Below, piece after piece: positions 2,277-36,495 of a stretch of 36,648 bases of DNA. Made by a program: the position numbers and the translations under genes. Below the pieces are notes generated by a model, which did not search any database, was not told the DNA's origin, and worked only from the letters and a program-made list of their open reading frames with translations. Origin of the DNA: a virus (taxonomy: Duplodnaviria > Heunggongvirae > Uroviricota > Caudoviricetes); IMG/VR virus record IMGVR_UViG_2675903330_000001; one strand, given 5' to 3'. The stretch's first letter is position 1, and the number at the start of each line of letters is the position of its first letter.

Positions 2277-2575
2277 GATTTGCCCTCGCGTGAAAAATAT
2301 TTTCGATTATTTATAAAAAAGACTTGACCAAATCAAAAGGTACTGTTCCACGGATGAAATAAAGGGAGTTTTCGGCACCCCGGTTTTTGATGTGCGTGTG
2401 AGATTTCAAAACAGGTGCAGTGCAGCCCACCAGCGCGGTCGCTACGCGACTATTAACACCCGCCAATCCCTTTCCATGCCTCGATCTTTCCCTTCGTTAT
2501 AAAGCGTTTTAGGCGCTCTCCTGAATGCGCAGATCAGATAAATAATTTTACGCAAATTTAATGGAGGATAACCGG

Positions 2576-3127
2576 ATGAAAGAAGAATTAACCCTTACAG
2601 AAATTTCCCGTTTATACGGCTATACAATTAACGCCGCTAAGAAATGGCAAGAACGAGGAATGCCATTTAATACCAATACCCGCCGCGTGCCAGCCAAAGA
2701 AGGAACAGAATGGGTCTTGAAAAATATCATCAACCCGCTTAAAGAAACTACTGTCAAGGAACAAATCGACGTAGAGAAATTACGCCGTGAGAGAGCATTA
2801 GCAGATGCAGCCGAACGAGAGAACCAGGAAGCGATGAATCTCCTGATTCCCGTCGGGTATGTGGAGCAGGAGCTAGCGGAATATTGCGGGAAAGTGAAGC
2901 AGACTATTTTGCAGATCGCCACAATCGATGCCCTAGAAATTCTCGAATCTGCCAATGACCAGAAAACATTGAAGAATAAGCTAAGAGAGATTATCGAGCG
3001 TCGTTTAAATGAAGTAGGGGACTTGTTCGAAAATGCAGATTTGGGAGAAGACGAGGAAGAAGAATTACCATTAATGGATGAACCGGAACAAGAACCAGAA
3101 GAAGACGATGAATTTGATGTGTCTTAA
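2576..3127 (+). CDS. Nu1-like winged-HTH DNA-binding protein, probable terminase small subunit
   Basis: GGAGG 8 nt upstream of the ATG at 2576. N-terminus LTLTEISRLYGYTINAAKKWQERGMP resembles the lambda Nu1 HTH (TIQNWQEQGMP); acidic C-terminal tail. A gpA-type large terminase (9781) normally pairs with a Nu1-type small subunit. Confidence 0.5.
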   Translation: MKEELTLTEISRLYGYTINAAKKWQERGMPFNTNTRRVPAKEGTEWVLKNIINPLKETTVKEQIDVEKLRRERALADAAERENQEAMNLLIPVGYVEQELAEYCGKVKQTILQIATIDALEILESANDQKTLKNKLREIIERRLNEVGDLFENADLGEDEEEELPLMDEPEQEPEEDDEFDVS

Positions 3128-4097: not shown

Positions 4098-5117
4098 TTA
4101 AGCTGCGTATGCGTAGGCGCTGTAGTTGGTGTCATAGATAGCGTCATGCAGTGCCATATGTGCTTCGCGGATCTCGTCTTCGTTTACTTCAATCTCTTCT
4201 TGTTCTTCTTCGGTATCTTCCCAAGTGGTTTTGAATTTAGCCATAAAGTTATTGCGCAGTGTTTCAAAGTTGGTAACTGGTGCGGATTCTGCTTCAACCG
4301 GAACCGGAACTACTACCGGATCAGCTTCTTTCTGTTCTACTTCTTCACCGTTACCCCAACGATAGTTAAGGAGTTCTTCCAGTTCTTCATCAATGGATTT
4401 TTCTTCAACTGCTTCAACTTCAACCGCTGCTACTTCGAAAGTGGTTTCCTGTGCTGACAGTTCAGCTTTCAGAGATGCGTTTTCTGCTTTAACTGCTGCC
4501 ATTTCTGCTTCCAGTTCAGCAATGCGTGCGTTCAGTGCTTCAACTTCGGAAGATTCAACCACTGCAACTTCTTCTTTAACTTCTTCAACTACTACCGGAG
4601 CAACTTCTTTCTGTGCTTCTTTTTTGCAGAAGAAGGAGGAAGTAACCTGTAATGCGTGGTTGTAGAAGGAACCGCCTTTAGTGGTGTTAACAGTACCAGA
4701 AACATCTTTTACAGTGGATTCGGTAGCAACAGTACGGAAGCGTTTAGCAACTTCCTGGGTCTCTACGCCGTATTCGTTACGCTTGCTCTTGTGATGCATT
4801 ACAGCACGGAAGCCGGAAGCAGTTTTAACAACAGCGAGATAGTAAGTTTCATCGGCTTTAGCAGCACGAGCGAAGCAATAAACGGATTCACCTTCTACCA
4901 GTGTAGGTTTAACGTGACGTTTGTCGAAACGGTTAGTGATCTGCCATTCAGCACCGTCTTTGATGCCAGCATTCTGACGCATTTCGGTCAGAGTCTTACC
5001 GGATACTACTTCAAAGGATTTGTCTTGTTTGCTTGCTTTACCTTCCATGACGGTAATGTTCAGTTTGCCGTTGGATTTAATAAACAGGTTGAAGGTGATG
5101 CGCTTAGAATTTTTCAT
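4098..5117 (-). CDS. hypothetical protein (339 aa) with N-terminal globular domain and acidic Ala/Glu-rich coiled-coil
   Basis: Longest uninterrupted frame in the region, AGGAG RBS 10 nt upstream. The plus-strand ORFs over the same DNA are fragmented Ser/Thr-rich antisense artefacts. Confidence 0.6.
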   Translation of the reverse strand: MKNSKRITFNLFIKSNGKLNITVMEGKASKQDKSFEVVSGKTLTEMRQNAGIKDGAEWQITNRFDKRHVKPTLVEGESVYCFARAAKADETYYLAVVKTASGFRAVMHHKSKRNEYGVETQEVAKRFRTVATESTVKDVSGTVNTTKGGSFYNHALQVTSSFFCKKEAQKEVAPVVVEEVKEEVAVVESSEVEALNARIAELEAEMAAVKAENASLKAELSAQETTFEVAAVEVEAVEEKSIDEELEELLNYRWGNGEEVEQKEADPVVVPVPVEAESAPVTNFETLRNNFMAKFKTTWEDTEEEQEEIEVNEDEIREAHMALHDAIYDTNYSAYAYAA

Positions 5118-5233: not shown

Positions 5234-5413
5234 TTAACAAACTTGAACGTTAATCTTTATCTGAATTTCGTATTTCTTCATTAGCTTATAGAATCCGCTT
5301 CTATCAATTCCTTCCTTCTTAAAGAAATTCTCGCCGCCTCGTTCAGTATCGCCATAAAAGCGTTTAGCAATATCAACAATCATTTCACGAGTAAACTTAA
5401 CAGGTCTAGCCAT
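5234..5413 (-). CDS. small HTH DNA-binding protein (59 aa), candidate transcriptional regulator
   Basis: ATG at 5413 with GAGGA RBS (the track start at 5428 is a TTG). C-terminal GIDRSGFYKLMKKYEI looks like a helix-turn-helix. First gene of a minus-strand operon diverging from the large intergenic region. Confidence 0.45.
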   Translation of the reverse strand: MARPVKFTREMIVDIAKRFYGDTERGGENFFKKEGIDRSGFYKLMKKYEIQIKINVQVC

Positions 5414-5981
5414 AAGTAGATTCCTCAAATGTGGATTAATAAGGACAATAAAAAGAGCTTTTCGCCCTCGATACTTCTATTTATAAAAGTCATTTCAGAA
5501 AACCCTGCAAAACCACTGTATATCTGATCAGTGGGAGCACGAATTGCTAAAGAGAAGATTAATAATTAATCAATTCGTACATTATTCAATCGAAAAAGCA
5601 CTGTGTGTTTAACCAGTGCTGTGTGTGTTAACAGTGAATCAGGGGATTTTCAGAAGTGAACAATCATTTCATGCATGTATTTATACACGAAAAAATCTTG
5701 TTTATCATCAATATGTGGATTGTTTCGAAAATTTCAACCCCTACCAATGAGAAAAAGTATAAAATAATCCTTGACAGTTGTCAATGCACTTGACCTAAGC
5801 GAGAAATGACTATCAAAATTTTTGTGTGAAAATGGCGGATAACGATTATCAACCTTTATAACCTATTATAGCACGGCGACCTTTTGATAATTCTTTTTAA
5901 ATCATGCATTTACAGCGATTTTTGGTGATTTTCCGGTTAAATAATATACAAGAATTTTCTATCAAAATTTTTGATGAAAAA

Positions 5982-6122
5982 CCTACACTACAAACCTACG
6001 CTTTAAAGGTATTGGCCTACACTACACTAGTCAGTAAACCTACACTATAACACCCTCAAACCTACACTATGAAACCCTCAAACCTACACTATGAAACCTA
6101 CACACCTACACTAACCCTACAC
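5982..6122. repeat. iteron-like array: at least 9 copies of CCTACAC within about 21-bp tandem units (AAACCTACACTATGAAACCCTC)
   Basis: Direct count of CCTACAC/CCTACGC at 5982, 5995, 6016, 6039, 6061, 6083, 6097, 6105 and 6116. Confidence 0.8.
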
Positions 6123-6700
6123 TTCAATCTCATAAGTGTATGATCTTGAAAGACATTTCACCCCACAGACCATAGAATATAAAATTCGAACTAACGTTCT
6201 CCTTTTTGCTCGTTTTCTCTCACTACGTTCAAGAAAGATCTCGCAAAAAGAATACGGCGTAGCCGTGCGCGAAGCGCCCATCAACACCTTCTAAGACCTG
6301 CAAGCAGGATTCGAAAGGGATTGGATAGTTCGCTTCGCTCACGTTCACGCCTACGGCGTTCACTCGCTTTTGAAAGGATTTTCTTAGAAAGGGATTTAAT
6401 ACTAGTTACTAACTGATTCTAGTAAACGAACGAAGTGAGTAACAATCACTTTCTAGAAAGGTATTGGTATCCCTTCGGGATTGCAACCTTCGGTTGCTAA
6501 ATTGCTTCCTGATTATAATTTCTCCAAAAGAAAGATTCTTATATTCTAAAGATACTTCTTCGTTTTGATGATGATTTAATCAAATATATGAAGGAGGGCT
6601 TTAGCCCGACTGAATCCAATCACTTCCAAATAGATAAAAAATTCTCGTTATAAATAATAGTGAACTTACTTGATTCACTTTCTTTTAGAGGATTTCCACT

Positions 6701-7150
6701 ATGATCAATACTAAAACTCCTTTCGTACTTCTGGGTCTGGACTCTGAAAACTATGGCAACTTCCATATGCTAGAAGTTTTCGCTAATCGTGGTTATAACA
6801 TCATTCGTCATTCCGAAGACTCCAACTACTCAACTGCTTTCTACGCTTTAAAACGAAATGGTCGTCCTACTGTGATCATCGACTGTTTTACTGATGAGGG
6901 TCGTCTTCAATACAACGATATTCCAGCAATTATTGTTCGTGATGATCTGCCGTTTCAAGTCCGTTCCGGTGACATTGACCTGGGTAGCTTCTTGACTCTT
7001 CGTGAACTGGATGAAGCAATGTTTAATTACGGTAAAGAAACCGCTCAGGAAGCCCCAGAACAAGATGAGGAAGACGAAGACTACGCACCAATCGCTTTCT
7101 CTTCTCACGGTGGCTTCTACGGTTACGATGAAGGCTTAGATATGCTGTAA
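6701..7150 (+). CDS. hypothetical protein (149 aa) with acidic C-terminal tail
   Basis: AGAGGA RBS; codon usage strongly biased to E. coli optimal codons; C-terminus EAPEQDEEDEDYAPIAF ... FYGYDEGLDML. Confidence 0.55.
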   Translation: MINTKTPFVLLGLDSENYGNFHMLEVFANRGYNIIRHSEDSNYSTAFYALKRNGRPTVIIDCFTDEGRLQYNDIPAIIVRDDLPFQVRSGDIDLGSFLTLRELDEAMFNYGKETAQEAPEQDEEDEDYAPIAFSSHGGFYGYDEGLDML

Positions 7151-8526: not shown

Positions 8527-8532
8527 TTAATC

Positions 8533-8562
8533 GCCCGGCGCATAATTGCGCTGGGCTTTTTT
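8533..8562 (+). terminator. rho-independent terminator
   Basis: GCCCGGCGC-ATAATT-GCGCTGGGC stem followed by T6, immediately after the 8526 stop. Confidence 0.7.
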
Positions 8563-8573
8563 GTATCTGATGC

Positions 8574-8790
8574 ATCCAGATTTGGATTTATCGGAAGAAT
8601 CAATAGGTTAGAGATGAGCGCAGTTTTGCGCCGATTGATTCAAGTTTGAATTTCTCGAAAGAATCAACCACTTAGATAGATACGCTGAACTTTAAGCACA
8701 TCTCCTCAGTTTTGAGGGCATCTATAGATCAGTCCAAATCTGGACTCATCGGAAGAATCAATGACTTAGAGATGTGCTCAGTTTTGAGCG
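8574..8790. repeat. three tandem 50-70 bp direct repeats (core TCGGAAGAATCAAT ... TTAGAGATG ... CAGTTTTG), outer copies prefixed by inverted CCAGATTTGG / CCAAATCTGG
   Basis: Copies at about 8574-8640, 8648-8720 (degenerate) and 8725-8790, lying between convergent terminators. Confidence 0.7.
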
Positions 8791-8794
8791 GATA

Positions 8795-8824
8795 TAAAAA
8801 AGGCCAACCCCGAAGGATTGGCCT
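8795..8824 (-). terminator. rho-independent terminator for the minus-strand operon
   Basis: AGGCCAA ... TTGGCCT hairpin preceded on the plus strand by A6, giving a T-run on the minus strand after the 8831 stop. Confidence 0.6.
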
Positions 8825-8830
8825 AGAGAA

Positions 8831-9061
8831 TCAAATTCCTGTTGCTTCTACCATTTCACCGTCAACCTGAACAAAGAATTTCAAATCAACTTTATGTAGG
8901 GATTTGTATAGCTGGGCTATAGATAAGCCATGCTCATTTAATACCCGTTCTTTGTTCTCTTTACCTTTCGGTGCTTGATAGTACGCTTTTACAATCGCTG
9001 CCAGTTGTTCACGATTAAAACGGGCAGGGCGACCGCGAGTAGCTTTAGTAGTCATAGTCAT
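8831..9061 (-). CDS. small DNA-binding protein (about 75 aa)
   Basis: GGAG RBS; ATG at 9061 or 9055; TKATRGRPARFNREQ followed by an HTH-like GLSIAQLYKSLHK. Confidence 0.45.
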   Translation of the reverse strand: MTMTTKATRGRPARFNREQLAAIVKAYYQAPKGKENKERVLNEHGLSIAQLYKSLHKVDLKFFVQVDGEMVEATGI

Positions 9062-9090
9062 TTTCTCCAAATTAAAGTGAATGTTCACCT

Positions 9091-9693
9091 TTATTTAGAG
9101 GACTTACATTTTATAGGAAAAAGTTCTCCATCGTCAACCGACATAAAGAACTCTGCCTTAATCCCGTACTTCTTCAACCGTGAATAGTATGTACCCCGAC
9201 TTATATCAACCTTGCGCAGCACTTCGAAGAAGGACTTAGGATCGTTGTAATAGTGGCTATATCGCACGTTAGCGAGTTCTACAAACAATTCCCTTGTATC
9301 ACCATAGCCTTTCTTAAAAGCCTCGTTACGATAGCGTGTAATAGCGTGATTCAATCTCTTCTGTTTCAACACTTCTCGGATCGGCTTCCACTGCAACCGA
9401 TAGATAGGACCGTCATCAATGCGATAATAACGCTTGATATCAAAATCAAACCAATCTCGGACTCTCCGAAACTCTGTATGTGATGTTCTATGCTTCTTAA
9501 AGAAGTTGTGAACGTCTGTATAACCATTATCGCGGTAAAATTCTATTAAAATCTCTTTCGCTTCCTCACGGCTAAACCCAGATGTTGTGTAGTCGGTCTT
9601 CTTGTGATGGTGCTTAACTGGCAAACGATATTCATGATCGGTACAAGACAAGGCTAATTCTAATTCATCTCTTTCTTGCTGATTAATTAGCAT
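9091..9693 (-). CDS. hypothetical HTH-containing protein (200 aa)
   Basis: Transcribed divergently from terL; C-terminal [23 protein letters not shown] is HTH-like; an internally repeated basic/aromatic segment. Confidence 0.45.
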
Positions 9694-17631: not shown

Positions 17632-20600
17632 ATGCAGTCGATCCAATTTAAACGAACAAATGTTTCTGGCAAAAAACCAACGCCGGAACAATTACAGGTC
17701 GGTGAGGTAGCAATCAACCTTAAAGACCATGTTATTTTCACCAAAGACCGAGATCATGAAGTAGTTCAAATCTCTGTTTCTCCTGAAACTCACGCGGCAC
17801 TAGAATCTAAAGTTGATGCTAACAAACAAGAATTGGATAGCACAATTGCAGTAAATGACCGCAATATTCACGCTAAAGTAGATGAAATTAAACAAACTAC
17901 TGATGCAACCATCGCAGCAAATCACGCAGAAATTAACAATAAAGTTGATGTAATTAAACGCGAAACCGACGCGACAATCGAGGCCAATAAAAATAAAGCT
18001 GCTTCCGATCTTGCTGGTGTTAAAGCTGAATTGTCGGATACCATCAACGCTAATAAAAATGCGGCTGCTGTAGCAACTCAGGAACTGGACACCCGCATCA
18101 ATAAAAAAGTTGATGATATTAAATCCCGTACCGATGCAACCATCGTAAGCAATCACAAAGCAATCAATGACAAAGTTGATTTGATTAAGGCAGAAACTGA
18201 CCGCACTATCGCAGCAAATCACGCCTATGCGGAAAATCAGTTAACTGACACCTACAATAACCTTACTGGTGTGATTGCAGCCAATAAGCAAGAGGCAGCG
18301 GATAACGTCGCAGCATTAACCCGTGATGTTGAAGCCAAAAATACAGCAATTCATAGCAAAGTTGACAATAACAAGTCTTACACTGATTCTGAATTGGCAC
18401 GCTTAGAAAGCCGTATTGATGCAGCCGATGGATCAAGTGATGGTAAGTACATCAAAAAGCACGTAAACACTTGCACTGATGGCTATTTGCTGTCTAAGAC
18501 CGCAAACCCTTTTGATGATCCGAGTGCTCTTAATCTTGATTACTTTGGTGCATTTCGCATGAATGACCTGGCGGGTCATATTGCAATGATCTTGCATGTT
18601 CCGCACCCATCCGGCGTTAATCATGCTCGTGGTTTTGAGTTCACTTATGGGTCTAATCCGGTTCATACGGTAAGAACATACGGCTATGATGAATTGGGAC
18701 ATTTGGCATATTCTCACCGCATGTATCATGAAGGTGATAAACCTACTCCGGCTGAAATTGGCGCATATTCGAAAGCAGAAATTGACCGACTGTTCCAGAA
18801 GACGCTTAATTTTGGTATCGAGGGTGGTTGGTTTAAACTAGGCACTTTGACAATGCCACAACAACACGGTCGCACGGCTAAGATCCGTTTGGTTGGTGGT
18901 AACGGTTATAACGTAGGACATAATGGACAAGCCAATATTATCGAATTGGTGATTCGATGCGGCAACAATAGCCCGAAAGGTGTTGTATTCAATGCGTATT
19001 ATACTATTTGGCATTATGAACAACATTTTTGCGCTATTCCAACCGATGGCGACAATTACGATCTTTACGCTTACTACGGTGCACATACAGGATTTGTTTT
19101 AGCAGAATATCAAGTTTCTTCCGGTGGTGTTTCTTTAAACCTGTTGGATACTCCTGAATACCTGGGCGGTGAAAAACCTGTTGCAGATGAAATTTTTGAT
19201 GCTCTTAACATTTCATCGTTCAATAACTTTAGCAACCGTGGAACGTTAAATTTTGGTGGAAACCATCAAGGTCAATATGATATTGAGCATTTAAACGAAC
19301 AACCGACAAATGCTAAAAAGATGTTGCGTCGCTTCCGTAGTTGTGCTCCTGCCACTATCTGGCATGAGACAGTTGATGATAACAAGTATCGTCTTGCTAC
19401 TGGATACGAAGATACAAATCAGGAATTATTGCTGTCAGCAACATCCGGGTTACATATCAAGAAATTAACATTGGATGGCGGTGTTACTGGAAATTCTGGT
19501 ATTGATATTCGTCGAGGACCAAATGAAGCAAGCCATTTTAATTTCATGGATTATCGCACTGGACAAGATGTTCGTAATGGCTGGTTTGGCTTCGGTGATG
19601 GAACAACCAAAGATTTTATTTGGTGGAACGATAACGGTCAAAACTCGATAAACCTGATTGAAGACGGTGAATTACATATTACTGGCGGTAGAGGCCAGAA
19701 AATTGTAATGAATAGCGAAGTGGCATTATCTGAAAATGCTCGTTTGGCTGTCAAAGGTGGTAACTATGGTTTAATCCTTCGTAATGATGGTTCTAGCTTC
19801 CATATTCTTACTACCGATTTAAAAGATTCCTTTGGGACGTGGAATACTCGTAGACCATTTAGTTATGATTTCGCCGAAGGTGGATTAGATCTAGGTGGCA
19901 CAGCTACCGCACGCTGTTTACATCTGGGAATTGATGGTAGCACCCGCATCGAAGATAATATGGTGTTTAGATCAGGGTCTCGTCAGTCAATGGACTATAT
20001 TGAATTAATCCATTGGGGTAACAGTAATACAGGACGCAATAACGTTTTGAGTATGCGAGATTCCAAAGGTTTCTTGGCTGAATTTGAACGCGTGGGGGGT
20101 ACTAACGGCGTTAAAACCAGATTCTTTGGCGAAACATTCACTGATGGTACATTATACCTAAATCAGATGAATAATAGCTCTGAACGATTCTCTATTAATA
20201 ATTGGGGAAATTCAGAAGTTGGTCGCGCGGCAGTGATGGAAGTCGGTGATTCCAAAGGTTATCACTTCTATACTGAACGTAGGACAGATAACAGTTTGAT
20301 GTTTGATGTTGCTGGCGCTTTTACTGTGCATGGACCTTCCGGGATTACTATCAAAAACTCTGCTGGTGCTCGCCACGTCTGGTTTAGAGATGATAGCGAT
20401 ACGGAAAAGGCTGTTATCTGGGCTACAGATGAGGGTATTTTACATATTCGCAATAACCACGGTGGACAATTTACACATCACTTCCAGGGCGCGATGATTA
20501 AACTGGAAGGGCGTGTTCCTTATGCCGCAGATCAAGGACTTATCCGTGGTGAGGTTTCTGGTGGTGCATATGTTGCATGGAGAGACCGACCTGCTGGTTT

Positions 20601-21156
20601 GTTGGTTGACTGTCAACAAAGCGTTGATAGTGCTCATGCTATTTGGAAAGCGGTTGATTGGGGGCGTAACTACATCGCTGCTATGGACGTTCATTGTCCC
20701 GGTGATAGTAATAATACTGCGGCAGCGGTTCTTCATGTTCAGGGTGCTGATTATCAATTCCATGCAAGTGGAGAATTTCATGCCACTGGTAACGGAAACT
20801 TTAACGATGTTTATATTCGTTCCGATCGTCGTCTGAAAATTAATGTTGAAGATTACGAAGAAAATGCGGTGGATAAGGTAAATAAACTCAAAGTTAAAAC
20901 CTACGATAAAGTTAAATCTCTTAATGACCGAGAAGTTATAGGTCATGAGATTGGTATTATCGCACAGGATTTACAAGAGGTATTACCGGAAGCTGTTAAA
21001 ACCGCAAAAATTGGTGGTTTTGATAACCCAGAAGAAATTTTAACAATTTCAAACTCCGCAGTGAACGCGCTTTTAATTAAAGCGGTCCAAGAAATGAGCG
21101 AAGAAAATAAACTTCTTCGTGAACGTCTTGCTGCAATTGAAGCTAAATTAGGGTAA
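17632..21156 (+). CDS. side (L-shaped-type) tail fiber with C-terminal intramolecular chaperone domain
   Basis: 1174 aa; N-terminal about 21-aa repeats (KVD-IK--TDATI-AN); C-terminus SDRRLKINVEDYEENAVDKVNKLKVKTYD ... LLRERLAAIEAKLG is typical of the self-cleaving endosialidase-type chaperone (peptidase S74). Confidence 0.75.
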   Translation: MQSIQFKRTNVSGKKPTPEQLQVGEVAINLKDHVIFTKDRDHEVVQISVSPETHAALESKVDANKQELDSTIAVNDRNIHAKVDEIKQTTDATIAANHAEINNKVDVIKRETDATIEANKNKAASDLAGVKAELSDTINANKNAAAVATQELDTRINKKVDDIKSRTDATIVSNHKAINDKVDLIKAETDRTIAANHAYAENQLTDTYNNLTGVIAANKQEAADNVAALTRDVEAKNTAIHSKVDNNKSYTDSELARLESRIDAADGSSDGKYIKKHVNTCTDGYLLSKTANPFDDPSALNLDYFGAFRMNDLAGHIAMILHVPHPSGVNHARGFEFTYGSNPVHTVRTYGYDELGHLAYSHRMYHEGDKPTPAEIGAYSKAEIDRLFQKTLNFGIEGGWFKLGTLTMPQQHGRTAKIRLVGGNGYNVGHNGQANIIELVIRCGNNSPKGVVFNAYYTIWHYEQHFCAIPTDGDNYDLYAYYGAHTGFVLAEYQVSSGGVSLNLLDTPEYLGGEKPVADEIFDALNISSFNNFSNRGTLNFGGNHQGQYDIEHLNEQPTNAKKMLRRFRSCAPATIWHETVDDNKYRLATGYEDTNQELLLSATSGLHIKKLTLDGGVTGNSGIDIRRGPNEASHFNFMDYRTGQDVRNGWFGFGDGTTKDFIWWNDNGQNSINLIEDGELHITGGRGQKIVMNSEVALSENARLAVKGGNYGLILRNDGSSFHILTTDLKDSFGTWNTRRPFSYDFAEGGLDLGGTATARCLHLGIDGSTRIEDNMVFRSGSRQSMDYIELIHWGNSNTGRNNVLSMRDSKGFLAEFERVGGTNGVKTRFFGETFTDGTLYLNQMNNSSERFSINNWGNSEVGRAAVMEVGDSKGYHFYTERRTDNSLMFDVAGAFTVHGPSGITIKNSAGARHVWFRDDSDTEKAVIWATDEGILHIRNNHGGQFTHHFQGAMIKLEGRVPYAADQGLIRGEVSGGAYVAWRDRPAGLLVDCQQSVDSAHAIWKAVDWGRNYIAAMDVHCPGDSNNTAAAVLHVQGADYQFHASGEFHATGNGNFNDVYIRSDRRLKINVEDYEENAVDKVNKLKVKTYDKVKSLNDREVIGHEIGIIAQDLQEVLPEAVKTAKIGGFDNPEEILTISNSAVNALLIKAVQEMSEENKLLRERLAAIEAKLG

Positions 21157-33709: not shown

Positions 33710-33755
33710 TTCTTATAAATAGTAGTGAATATTATTTTATTGAGGATTCACTACT

Positions 33756-34827: not shown

Positions 34828-36495
34828 TTAAATTCCAAATTCCTGTAATGGACCTGGTATTTCCTCTTCTGGTTTCCAGTCTTTATCTGTCAGCATGTCT
34901 AAACATGGATGCAGAACAAGCCCGTTACTCTCCAGAATCTGCCTATCATTGATAGTTTTCAAATCGACAAAGATTTGTCCTTTCCTCGTTCCTCTTGAAT
35001 TTTCTATTACAACTCTCTGGGTCTTTCCATCGATGTATTCCAGCACAAACAAGTTTTTATTTCTGTCAATCCTGCTACACCCGATCCGCTTTAGAGCTTG
35101 CTTAATCTTAAACCGGACCTTTAGTCGTTCCTCGTTATAAACATCTTCTAAATCAAATTCTGCGAGCTTCTCCCAGCCTTGAGAGTCCACAGAATACATT
35201 TCCTCTTCTGCCATCTTGATCTGATTGTAGAGTGTTTCACGCTCGCTATTGAGGGTAGTAATCTGATCGGCTAGCTCCTTCGTTGCTCCTGTCATAGCAG
35301 AAAGGGCAATCAGGTTATCAATCTTGCGTGATATCTCATCAACCTGTACTTTCAACGCCGGAACCGGATTAGCCTTGTCCTCAGCAATCCATATTTTATC
35401 AGCCAGCAATTGCAATACAGCTTTCTCTAATTGATCACCTCGAAAACTCCAGTTTGGATGCTCGCAATCAAGTCTACGTGAACGGGTCGCATCACATGTA
35501 TAACGATACTGGTCAGAACGTTTGTTCGTTCCCTTCACTTTAACCATAGCGCAACCGCAATGATCACATTTCAATAGGCCAATACCACTAAGCAGGGGGA
35601 TCGGTTTAACTTCTTCCTTGTCTCCAAAGTTCCATGCTCTAGCACCAATATTTTTCTTAAGGTGATAGAACGTAGCATCATCAATAACACGAGGGTAATA
35701 ATCCTTTAACTCATAGTTAACACCATCTACAGAGACTTCCTTGATACCAATCAAAGCGCGGGTATGGAACAACCTTTCAACCATTGCCCGTGACCATTTT
35801 GAATGCTTCTTATTACTAACCGCTGGTGGCGGTGTATATGTCTCGTTAAGGTGATCCAGTATTTCGGCGGTTGAACGTCCATTCTTCCGTAATTCCACAA
35901 TCTCCTGAACAACAGGGAAGTATGTAGGATGAGGCAACACATAACCGGAAGTGGTATCCGTCCACCACATATTCTTTCCAACTTCCTCGATTGCCACTGC
36001 CGGATTCTGGGGATTTTCTTGATGGGCTTTAATCTTAATCAGTGCGCTTGAGTTAGTACGATTGCGCTTAGTCTGGCTTTCCTCATTACCACGGATGAAT
36101 AAAAGGATGGAGAACATCAGGTCCATCGGGTTAGCGGTAACAGTATCCAGCGAGTAGATCTTGTTATCCATGCCAGTAACAATGGTTATCCCCCTACGGA
36201 TGATTGAAAGGAATAACTCCTGCGCACTGACAATATCGGCACGGGATAAGCGGTCCAAGTTTTCAATGAATAGCCAGCTACCAACAGGAACGGATCTACC
36301 AATTGCATCAAGGAAACGAGATAGCGCCCCTGTTTTGGAGTTAGCACCCTTAAACGCAGATACACCCAGATCCTGATAATCATTTACCAGTTCAAGGTCA
36401 TACTTTGCCGCAACCTCTCTCGCCATCCTGATTTGTCGTTCATAACTCGAACCATCATTCTGACGCATAGACGAGAAGCGAATATACGAATACAG
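34828..36495 (-). CDS. large serine recombinase (prophage integrase), 5' end interrupted by IS1
   Basis: Resolvase-type catalytic region, recombinase domain, zinc ribbon (CDHCGC ... CDATRSRRLDCEH) and coiled-coil. The catalytic Y-x-R-x-S motif (LYSYIRFSS) lies upstream of the first ATG (36468) and runs directly into the IS1 terminus at 36496 with no start codon in between. Confidence 0.8.
   Translation of the reverse strand: MYSYIRFSSMRQNDGSSYERQIRMAREVAAKYDLELVNDYQDLGVSAFKGANSKTGALSRFLDAIGRSVPVGSWLFIENLDRLSRADIVSAQELFLSIIRRGITIVTGMDNKIYSLDTVTANPMDLMFSILLFIRGNEESQTKRNRTNSSALIKIKAHQENPQNPAVAIEEVGKNMWWTDTTSGYVLPHPTYFPVVQEIVELRKNGRSTAEILDHLNETYTPPPAVSNKKHSKWSRAMVERLFHTRALIGIKEVSVDGVNYELKDYYPRVIDDATFYHLKKNIGARAWNFGDKEEVKPIPLLSGIGLLKCDHCGCAMVKVKGTNKRSDQYRYTCDATRSRRLDCEHPNWSFRGDQLEKAVLQLLADKIWIAEDKANPVPALKVQVDEISRKIDNLIALSAMTGATKELADQITTLNSERETLYNQIKMAEEEMYSVDSQGWEKLAEFDLEDVYNEERLKVRFKIKQALKRIGCSRIDRNKNLFVLEYIDGKTQRVVIENSRGTRKGQIFVDLKTINDRQILESNGLVLHPCLDMLTDKDWKPEEEIPGPLQEFGI

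Follow-up and report, generated by a model that had tools for sequence, protein, structure and literature searches.

Tuerk et al. reportedly found, in 1988, stable C(UUCG)G hairpins in the intercistronic regions of phage T4, and such hairpins may stabilise the ends of RNAs or hold up polymerases. GNA or TNC triloops with a C-G closing pair are familiar chiefly from DNA hairpins of exceptional stability, and Hirao, Yoshizawa et al. are said to have described GNA-triloop mini-hairpins of the d(GCGAAGC) type. As for replication origins, oriλ has iterons, an AT-rich region and a palindrome, and the oriV of RSF1010 bears the ssiA and ssiB hairpins on opposite strands. RB49-type phages carry promoter/stem-loop cassettes (PeSLs), whose defining features are G(n)-loop-C(n) stems and a promoter near the consensus TTGACA-N17-TATAAT; their stem-loops terminate transcription, and the cassettes mediate modular shuffling (PMC2839356, PMC4122927). 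Here we compare these systems with positions 6130-6500 of the virus record IMGVR_UViG_2675903330_000001 (36,648 nt; 'the window' refers to this whole stretch), which is a whole contig (CXZM01000037.1) of an Escherichia coli assembly and consists mostly of a prophage. A first-pass annotation had described positions 6130-6500 as a hairpin-dense non-coding stretch with TTCG tetraloops and a fourfold repeat, and had proposed a structured RNA. We find that the stretch is no separate RNA gene; it makes up the central module of a 1.27-kb non-coding region by which the prophage is controlled. The module consists of a GC-rich stem-loop island (6254-6359), a GAAAGGKATT/CTAG repeat field (6311-6467) and a twin stem-loop (6469-6497) that stands in a cassette with an AT-rich block (6509-6592). 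The reading we rank first, with a probability of about 0.4, is that the hairpins are cis-acting attenuators, insulators or RNA-protecting stem-loops in an untranslated rightward transcript.

The control region is a gene-free stretch (5429-6700) between two divergent operons, the leftward with genes for 64-, 339- and 80-amino-acid (aa) proteins and the rightward with 149-aa, 110-aa and Rha/Ant-like genes. Its homologs come in sequence types A to D, defined below by their iterons, and the window is of type A. Feature names and coordinates are given in Table 1.

The hairpin cluster and the repeats noticed initially are largely real. The four named hairpins are all present: GCGCGAAGCGC at 6267-6277, CGCCTACGGCG at 6348-6358, TCCCTTCGGGA at 6470-6480 and GCAACCTTCGGTTGC at 6483-6497. 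We scanned the window for perfect stems of at least 4 bp, with at least three G/C and a loop of 3-5 nt. The scan returned 88 hairpins (2.4 per kb), seven of which fall in 6254-6607, where about 0.85 would be expected (Poisson estimate, p ~3e-5); the seven are hp1, hp2, hp4, hpA, hpB and the hairpins at 6297-6308 and 6596-6607. The description of the loops as tetraloops was wrong. In TCCC-TTC-GGGA and GCAACC-TTC-GGTTGC the arms abut a 3-nt TTC loop, and the C(UUCG)G register leaves a stem of only 2 bp, whereas a UNCG tetraloop has a C-G-closed 4-nt loop on a stable stem. The argument for RNA structure that was built on UUCG therefore fails. Nevertheless, the loops are not a random sample. All five triloops of the region are GNA or its complement TNC, as opposed to 3 of the 22 elsewhere in the window (hypergeometric estimate, p ~7e-4). 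The left hairpin pair has its GNA on the plus strand, and the hairpins further right have theirs on the minus strand. In addition, hp3/hp4 form together with 6256-6276 a large imperfect palindrome with 21-nt arms (81% complementary) and a 54-nt spacer.

Stems were compared in 40 distinct homologous sequences. For hp1 and hp2 the pairs were counted by our own script, because MAFFT gap placement splits partner bases into different columns. Wherever a hairpin was alignable its stem was never broken, while the loops vary. The outer pair of hp1 (6255/6265) is C-G in 16 sequences and G-C in 21; the third pair of hp4 (6350/6356) is C-G in 16 and T-A in 20. In loci L003 and L007 the CCC/GGG of hpA has become TGC/GCA (TGC-TTC-GCA), and the place of hpB is taken by an unrelated hairpin, GACGCTC-TGGA/TAGG-GAGCGTC. 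Type D has a different hairpin, GCGCCC-TGCG-GGGCGC, at the equivalent place, and the hairpin at 6596 also occurs as GGGC-TTT-GCCC and TGGC-TTTA-GCCA. The loop variants are GTA, TTT and TTTA in hp1, GAA, GTA and TTTA in hp2 (the TTT/TTTA loops of both occur in types B and C), TAC and TGC in hp4, and TTC and TGC in hpB. Since compensatory changes and whole-hairpin swaps keep the stems while the loops drift, the comparison points to stems maintained by selection for intrastrand pairing, with a small number of independent events behind it. The hairpins thus appear to be selected as single-strand structures, which is the part of the original structured-RNA proposal that stands.

The same substitutions bear on an explanation in which no single-strand structure is formed at all and regulators of the phage or the host bind duplex DNA, with the hairpins as dyad-symmetric sites and the repeats as half-sites. 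We consider it unlikely as an account of the whole module. Unrelated sequences replace entire hairpins with the dyad kept (GCAACC by GACGCTC, and GCGCCC-TGCG-GGGCGC in type D), the central spacer is 3 or 4 nt, and both arms change together, as expected for structure and not for recognition by one conserved protein. This explanation fits the repeats better than the GC hairpins. The fourfold repeat was confirmed, with copies at 6313-6322, 6372-6380 (GAAAGGATT), 6387-6396 and 6456-6465, irregularly spaced by 59, 15 and 69 nt. Exact GAAAGGKATT has four matches in the window against 0.27 expected, and four or more were seen in none of 100 shuffles; one of these exact matches lies outside the region, at 2465-2474 on the minus strand. 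The repeat also has an inverted partner, AATCACTTTC at 6444-6453, which together with the fourth copy makes a 22-bp CTAG-centred palindrome. With their variable copy number and palindromic partner, the GAAAGG repeats behave like protein-site arrays. Binding to duplex sites is further favoured by the number of modules, which varies as in such arrays, by the AAAGGNATTGG motif, which also flanks the iterons, and by the presence in the prophage of small helix-turn-helix-like paralogs (64, 85 and 200 aa) and a Rha-like protein.

A tandem-repeat finder reported no tandem repeats in 6130-6500, which excludes a ToxI-like array of identical ~34-36-nt repeats, as in type III toxin-antitoxin RNAs, where it precedes the toxin gene. 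Two other assignments of the repeats were tried. A copy 90 nt upstream of terS prompted a reading of GAAAGGGATT as terminase small-subunit (cosB-like) sites. It was rejected: many variants have other sequence in place of the terS-proximal copy yet retain those in 6130-6500, and local alignment gave no significant match. Comparison by eye only, with E. coli CRISPR repeat sequences, excluded a CRISPR-repeat mimic. In one variant, L036 (IMGVR_UViG_2778260996_000020), the counterpart of ~6432-6477 is a perfect 46-nt palindrome centred on CTAG, which resembles a template-switch event at a quasi-palindrome.

There is no sign of a free-standing structured RNA gene in the stretch. At gathering thresholds Rfam 15 matches nothing in the whole window but the host tRNA-Ser. 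Relaxed thresholds over 5300-6800 gave only noise at E>2, five other variants and one Krischvirus locus had no match at E<=0.1, and ARAGORN reported no tRNA in the region. The covariance-model search proposed at the outset thus matched no family here. In each of the six types tested, both strands are more stably folded than their dinucleotide shuffles (z -2.3 to -5.9), to about the same extent; palindromes are expected to behave in this way, and the result does not identify the strand. No global fold is conserved across sequence types; a long-range helix between 6256-6276 and 6331-6351 was rejected as a conserved element, since its arms are not positionally kept in type B. Nor is any small-RNA unit of promoter plus terminator conserved across types. 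A minus-strand small RNA with its own promoter and terminator was discarded because these features exist in some types only: the one minus-strand terminator-like site (6266-6254 followed by ATTCTTTTTG) has its T-run displaced in type B. The suggestion of a phage-encoded small RNA is not supported.

Its more general form, a discrete trans-acting or antisense regulatory RNA, seems to us improbable, at about the level of the duplex-site explanation. One version would be a ~165-nt minus-strand RNA running from a promoter-like site at 6445-6416 (TTGTTA-18-TAGAAT) to a hairpin-plus-T-run at 6266-6244 (terminator-like ACGGCTACGCCGT+ATTCTTTTTG). In the other, GAAAGGKAUU and AAUCACUUUC segments would pair alternately, as in the P4 CI or P1 c4 immunity RNAs. 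The minus strand does fold very well in the window's type (-106.8 kcal/mol, z -5.96), some copies of the repeat are complementary to others, the genes downstream include an Ant/Rha-like one, and no classical repressor gene was recognised. However, in type B the terminator T-run is displaced by 9 nt, insertions destroy the promoter in L005-type variants, and there is no match in Rfam, C4 and other phage RNA families included. The long-range helix is not positionally conserved between types, and the variation in repeat copy number argues against a fixed fold.

The statement that the stretch has no open reading frame holds in the sense that coding is unlikely; mechanical frames of 31-56 aa do exist, none of them conserved. 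Coding is implausible because segment replacements and indels across the variants break any frame. The Prokaryotic Genome Annotation Pipeline (PGAP) annotates nothing over the hairpin stretch in 14/14 homologous RefSeq loci. Within the spacer it calls a single coding sequence, a hypothetical one of 69 aa in L010, which falls in the iteron section and thus ahead of the hairpins.

A part of the locus has a counterpart in Krischvirus (RB49-like) phages. The AT-rich block matches unannotated intergenic DNA of 58 phage records, nearly all of them Krischvirus, with E down to 5e-8. hpA/hpB sit 12 nt upstream of the block and form with it a cassette that RB49-like T4-type phages have as well. The block is present in at least three copies per Krischvirus genome, differing in orientation relative to genes, and each copy, viewed in the window's orientation, is preceded by a twin triloop hairpin (TCGC-TTC/TTT-GCGA together with ACTCC-TAC-GGAGT or GTGCC-GTA-GGCAC). 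These cassettes are intergenic and lie next to terminators and promoters; at one of them a TTGACA-17-TAGATT promoter on the opposite strand directly adjoins the hairpin. Thus, as in PeSLs, a stem-loop stands beside AT-rich intergenic DNA in a cassette that is repeated in Krischvirus genomes. We nevertheless rejected PeSL membership of the block, which is without the defining TTGACA-N17-TATAAT promoter. A promoter scan of plus-strand 6500-6600 gave nothing above threshold, and the best candidate by eye, TTGATG-16-TATGAA, is altered in most prophage variants. Homology of hp3/hp4 to the Krischvirus twin hairpins was also rejected: the match of 9-16 nt is no better than that of shuffles, so that the similarity is architectural only. 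Of the copies of this shared intergenic element (core TCTAAAGATCTTTCTTCGTTTTG plus a twin triloop hairpin; L077, L078, L080-L085), one lies just upstream of the tail-fibre genes.

The firmest new result of the analysis is a functional coupling, seen in sequence comparison, between the iterons to the left of the hairpins and the orphan 339-aa protein. The motif CCTACACTA has eight copies (<=1 mismatch) at 5982-6124, all on the plus strand, with spacings mostly of 22, 23 or 34 nt and one 11-nt step; the tandem-repeat finder gives a 22-nt period (3.5 copies, score 121). In other variants three unrelated repeat types stand in for the type A iterons. The four iteron types (CCTACACTA, TTTTGCCCCT, TCCCCAAGATTCCA and a TCCCCG-type), unrelated to one another, pair with four unrelated N-terminal domains of the 339-aa protein, and domain type (A-D) equals iteron type in 14/14 loci. 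The 64-aa gene, located between the iterons and the 339-aa gene, assorts independently of iteron type. Because the domain covaries with the iterons and this intervening gene does not, we mark the 339-aa protein as the presumed iteron-binding protein, an initiator or a regulator. It has no family match in Pfam, PHROG or NCBIfam. Only E. coli/Shigella hypothetical proteins were found as homologs in a 5.8-billion-protein search and an exhaustive HMMER search of representatives, and its AlphaFold2 model (confidence score, pLDDT, of 54) is too poor for a structure search. As a side observation, the plus-strand GC skew of the type A array (5970-6200) goes down to -0.84, the repeat units of the other three types are, by eye, also C-rich on the plus strand, and the array, if transcribed rightward, would resemble a Rho-utilisation site.

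The iterons make a replication origin the main rival of the cis-acting reading; we hold it possible, though somewhat less probable. The 339-aa protein would be an initiator that binds the eight iterons, melting would take place at AT-rich 5910-5999 or in the spacer 6128-6253, and the hairpins would act at the DNA level, extruded or single-stranded. The hairpin island and the twin hairpins could then serve as priming or helicase-loading signals, analogous to the palindrome beside the oriλ iterons and the opposite-strand ssi hairpins of RSF1010 oriV. Much of the locus agrees with this. Direct iterons lie on one strand, mostly about two helical turns apart, and their type follows that of the cognate protein domain across a segment that does not covary. 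DNA to the left of the iterons is AT-rich (23-25% GC), a GC island (50-55%) follows at 6240-6360, and the sequence is AT-rich again past 6500. The pair 6256-6276/6331-6351 makes a large palindrome, the stems are purely Watson-Crick, and the C-G-closed GNA loops have opposite strand polarity on the left and on the right. Moreover, nothing else in the ~35-kb prophage can be recognised as a replication gene or an origin. On the other hand, the 339-aa protein has no detectable relation to any initiator family, and GNA is not kept in hp1/hp2, where types B and C have TTT or TTTA. Lytic T4-type phages, whose replication does not start at iteron origins, also have the hairpin-block cassette, several times over and in different orientations, and no similar DNA was found in 72,556 plasmids. 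A more specific proposal, which we regard as rather improbable, is an undescribed kind of phage origin. It would combine the iterons, the 339-aa orphan and triloop hairpins exposed on opposite strands as priming or helicase-loading signals, with a cassette that is common with RB49-like T4-type phages and possibly exploited by them in infection.

According to the cis-acting reading, an untranslated rightward transcript would start near 5790-5819 (the operator-overlapped promoter), near 6157-6185, or at both. Its hairpins would act ahead of the 6701 / 7271 / Rha-like operon, attenuating or insulating read-through and forming nuclease-resistant RNA ends, in the manner of the stem-loops in T4-type promoter/stem-loop cassettes, and the interspersed repeats would be protein-binding sites. 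In favour of this are the enrichment of hairpins and repeats, the selection on stems, the folding stability and the Krischvirus cassette, as well as the rightward promoter candidates, one of which overlaps an operator-like site, and the lack of coding potential and of an Rfam family. A number of points weigh on the other side. The rightward transcript across the region is inferred only, no strong plus-strand promoter is conserved in all types, and gene 6701 has its best promoter-like element (6631-6658) on the downstream side of the hairpins. In 6130-6700 the plus strand has no intrinsic terminator, that is, no hairpin followed by a U-tract; the minus strand folds slightly better than the plus strand; and neither G-U pairs nor any other strand-specific signal was seen in the stems. 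Statistical homology to Krischvirus DNA covers the 84-nt block only and not the hairpins. Finally, the C-G-closed GNA/TNC triloops are familiar as stable DNA hairpins, and the hairpin island adjoins the iteron array; Watson-Crick stems, such loops and adjacent iterons fit DNA-level hairpins just as well. The leader suggested by the first-pass annotation is ranked first in its cis-acting form.

It might also be argued that the stretch has no function and is a recombination scar, or a patchwork of acquired intergenic DNA with chance palindromes. The region is indeed highly mosaic: 17 genomes have all of 6130-6500, many have 6364-6500 only and some only 6456-6500. It also has DNA in common with T4-type phages that donated a tail-fibre segment as well, and L036 has its template-switch-like perfect palindrome. 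We find this explanation very unlikely. The enrichment of hairpins, triloops and repeats argues against chance, and so do the stems, unbroken where alignable while loops vary. A spacer of about 1.26-1.46 kb is kept in 13/13 intact loci, and in several genomes the 6130-6500 part is 99.7% identical while the surrounding 1.8 kb is only about 90% identical.

Table 1. Features of the control region and the associated gene (window coordinates).
Feature	Positions	Strand	Remarks
Orphan 339-aa protein	4098-5117	-	type-specific ~170-aa N-terminal domain, coiled coil, acidic C-terminus
Strong leftward sigma-70-type promoter TTGACA-17-TATACT	5756-5784	-	11/12 consensus matches; predicted to drive the 64-aa/339-aa operon
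Candidate rightward promoter TTGACC-18-CAAAAT	5790-5819	+	score 10.2; overlaps palindromic operator-like site ATCAAAATTTTTG
About eight direct iterons, (A)AACCTACACTA	5979-6127	+	C-rich, G-poor on plus strand
Candidate promoter TTCACC-17-TAAAAT	6157-6185	+	just past the iterons; score 11.1; type A only, not in B-D
hp1 + hp2, twin hairpins ACGGC-GTA-GCCGT and GCGC-GAA-GCGC	6254-6277		hairpin scan
Hairpin CCTG-CAAG-CAGG	6297-6308		type A only; missing in type B
Repeat field with CTAG-punctuated modules	6311-6467	+	module number differs between variants
hp3 TCGCTTCGCTC + hp4 ACGCC-TAC-GGCGT	6330-6359		hp3 is an imperfect inverted copy of hp2
hpA ATCCC-TTC-GGGAT + hpB GCAACC-TTC-GGTTGC, twin hairpins	6469-6497		hairpin scan
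AT-rich block, core TCTAAAGATNNTTCTTCGTTTTG	6509-6592		76-85% identity to repeated Krischvirus intergenic DNA
Hairpin GGGC-TTTA-GCCC	6596-6607		hairpin scan
Promoter-like TAGATA-16-AATAAT	6631-6658	+	43 nt upstream of ATG at 6701; invariant TATAAATA at 6649-6656

Among the promoters, the leftward one is conserved, with a top-scoring equivalent in the other sequence types. The near-palindrome ATCAAAATTTTTG(A/T) has two copies ~149 bp apart, at 5812-5826 and about 5954-5975. The first overlaps the -10 of the rightward promoter candidate, and the copies resemble repressor operators. The T4 late-promoter consensus TATAAATA has six exact copies in the window, not significantly more than the 2.6 expected. 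Four of them, correctly oriented, precede a start codon by 32-50 nt (2308-2315(-), 5478-5485(-), 6649-6656(+) and 33714-33721(+)), and the copies may be mere sigma-70 -10-like boxes.

The first 1.9 kb of the contig are host DNA with tRNA-Ser(GGA) (168-255), ghrA and ycdX, the latter truncated after 141 codons; the rest is the ~35-kb prophage inserted in ycdX. A large serine recombinase is encoded at its far end (34828-36468, minus strand). The head and packaging genes comprise a Nu1-like small terminase (2561-3127), a gpA-type large terminase, a lambda-type portal and a protease-capsid fusion, and there are also gpJ-type tail genes, a tail fibre with 87% identity to Krischvirus fibres, and an endolysin. 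Family scans recognised no repressor or replication protein among the prophage proteins. Because the large terminase shares no more than 44% identity with its counterpart in the nearest sequenced phage, we take the prophage family to be uncharacterised; a literature search on the ycdX prophage turned up nothing relevant. Homologs of the locus are present in 57-58 of 5,426 complete E. coli genomes, chromosomal every time; IMG/VR adds some 30 contigs, each about 35 kb long, which are near relatives only. They are absent from the GTDB representatives of other species. Only genome assemblies were found to carry the locus, and no RNA-derived contigs.

Several further observations concern the prophage as a whole. 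The tail-fibre gene (17632-21156) has 85-87% DNA identity to Krischvirus long-tail-fibre genes, which shows recent exchange between a temperate siphophage-like element and lytic T4-type phages. A candidate for the cos cleavage site is GCGCGGTCGCTACGCGAC at 2433-2450, which includes the hairpin GTCGC-TAC-GCGAC, precedes the small-terminase gene by ~110 nt and is identical in every variant examined. The convergent intergenic region past the Rha-like gene (8527-8830) is a second hairpin or operator cluster of the prophage, with five palindromes whose arms measure 5-6 bp and whose centres measure 4 nt; NCNCA-GTTT-TGNGN is the form of three of these. The 64-, 85- and 200-aa proteins (5234-5428(-), 8831-9088(-) and 9091-9693(-)) have, by eye, a common C-terminal motif, G-I/L-x-x-S-x-F/Y-Y-K-L-x-K-K-Y-x-I. 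They may be paralogous small DNA-binding proteins, and none has a family match.

The prophage family is thus found in about 1% of complete E. coli genomes and is without recognisable repressor or replication genes; its terminase, too, is only 44% identical to any from a sequenced phage. Much of its biology must therefore be encoded in the 1.27-kb non-coding region and its orphan neighbours. If the hairpins are attenuator stem-loops, the idea of a T4-type 'mobile regulatory cassette' would extend to temperate siphophages, and if they prove to be origin signals or an RNA regulator, the control mechanism would be new. The parts obtained are a protein-iteron specificity system of at least four types, structurally conserved hairpins and a cassette common with lytic T4-type phages.

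Compared with P4 CI RNA and P1/P7 c4 RNA, the locus likewise has a non-coding leader with repeated and complementary segments upstream of an Ant/Rha-like operon, but there is no Rfam C4 match and no tRNA-like processing stem, and the complementary segments do not covary. The T4 intercistronic hairpins are similar in being short and GC-closed, in lying between phage genes and in the letters CTTCGG; they differ in that the prophage loop is UUC (3 nt) and not UUCG, and transcription here is inferred. With d(GCGAAGC) the resemblance is exact at one point, since GCGC-GAA-GCGC contains GCGAAGC, and all five region triloops are GNA on either strand and C-G-closed; unlike in a strictly selected GNA motif, the loops become TTT/TTTA in related variants. 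Iteron systems such as oriλ, iteron plasmids and RSF1010 have in common with the locus repeats phased at about two helical turns, adjacent AT-rich DNA and then a palindromic GC hairpin segment. An initiator-like protein whose DNA-binding domain covaries with repeat type, and a hairpin polarity that differs between left and right, belong to the same likeness. In contrast to iteron origins, the 339-aa protein is unrelated to O, Rep_3, RepA_N and RepC, the iterons are ~860 nt from its gene instead of inside or directly upstream of it, and similar hairpin cassettes are also found in T4-type phages. For the protein-repeat specificity itself, lambda O and its ori and PLE RepA and its iterons are comparable. 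Like the PeSLs of RB49/phi1, the hairpin-block cassettes are short and intergenic, combine GC stem-loops with AT-rich promoter-proximal DNA, and are repeated and shuffled between genomes. Unlike PeSLs, the prophage stems are of mixed GC with 3-nt loops, and the Krischvirus copies of the block are themselves not established as PeSLs. The element belongs to no known family, and is best described as a new form of phage control-region architecture of stem-loops and iterons.

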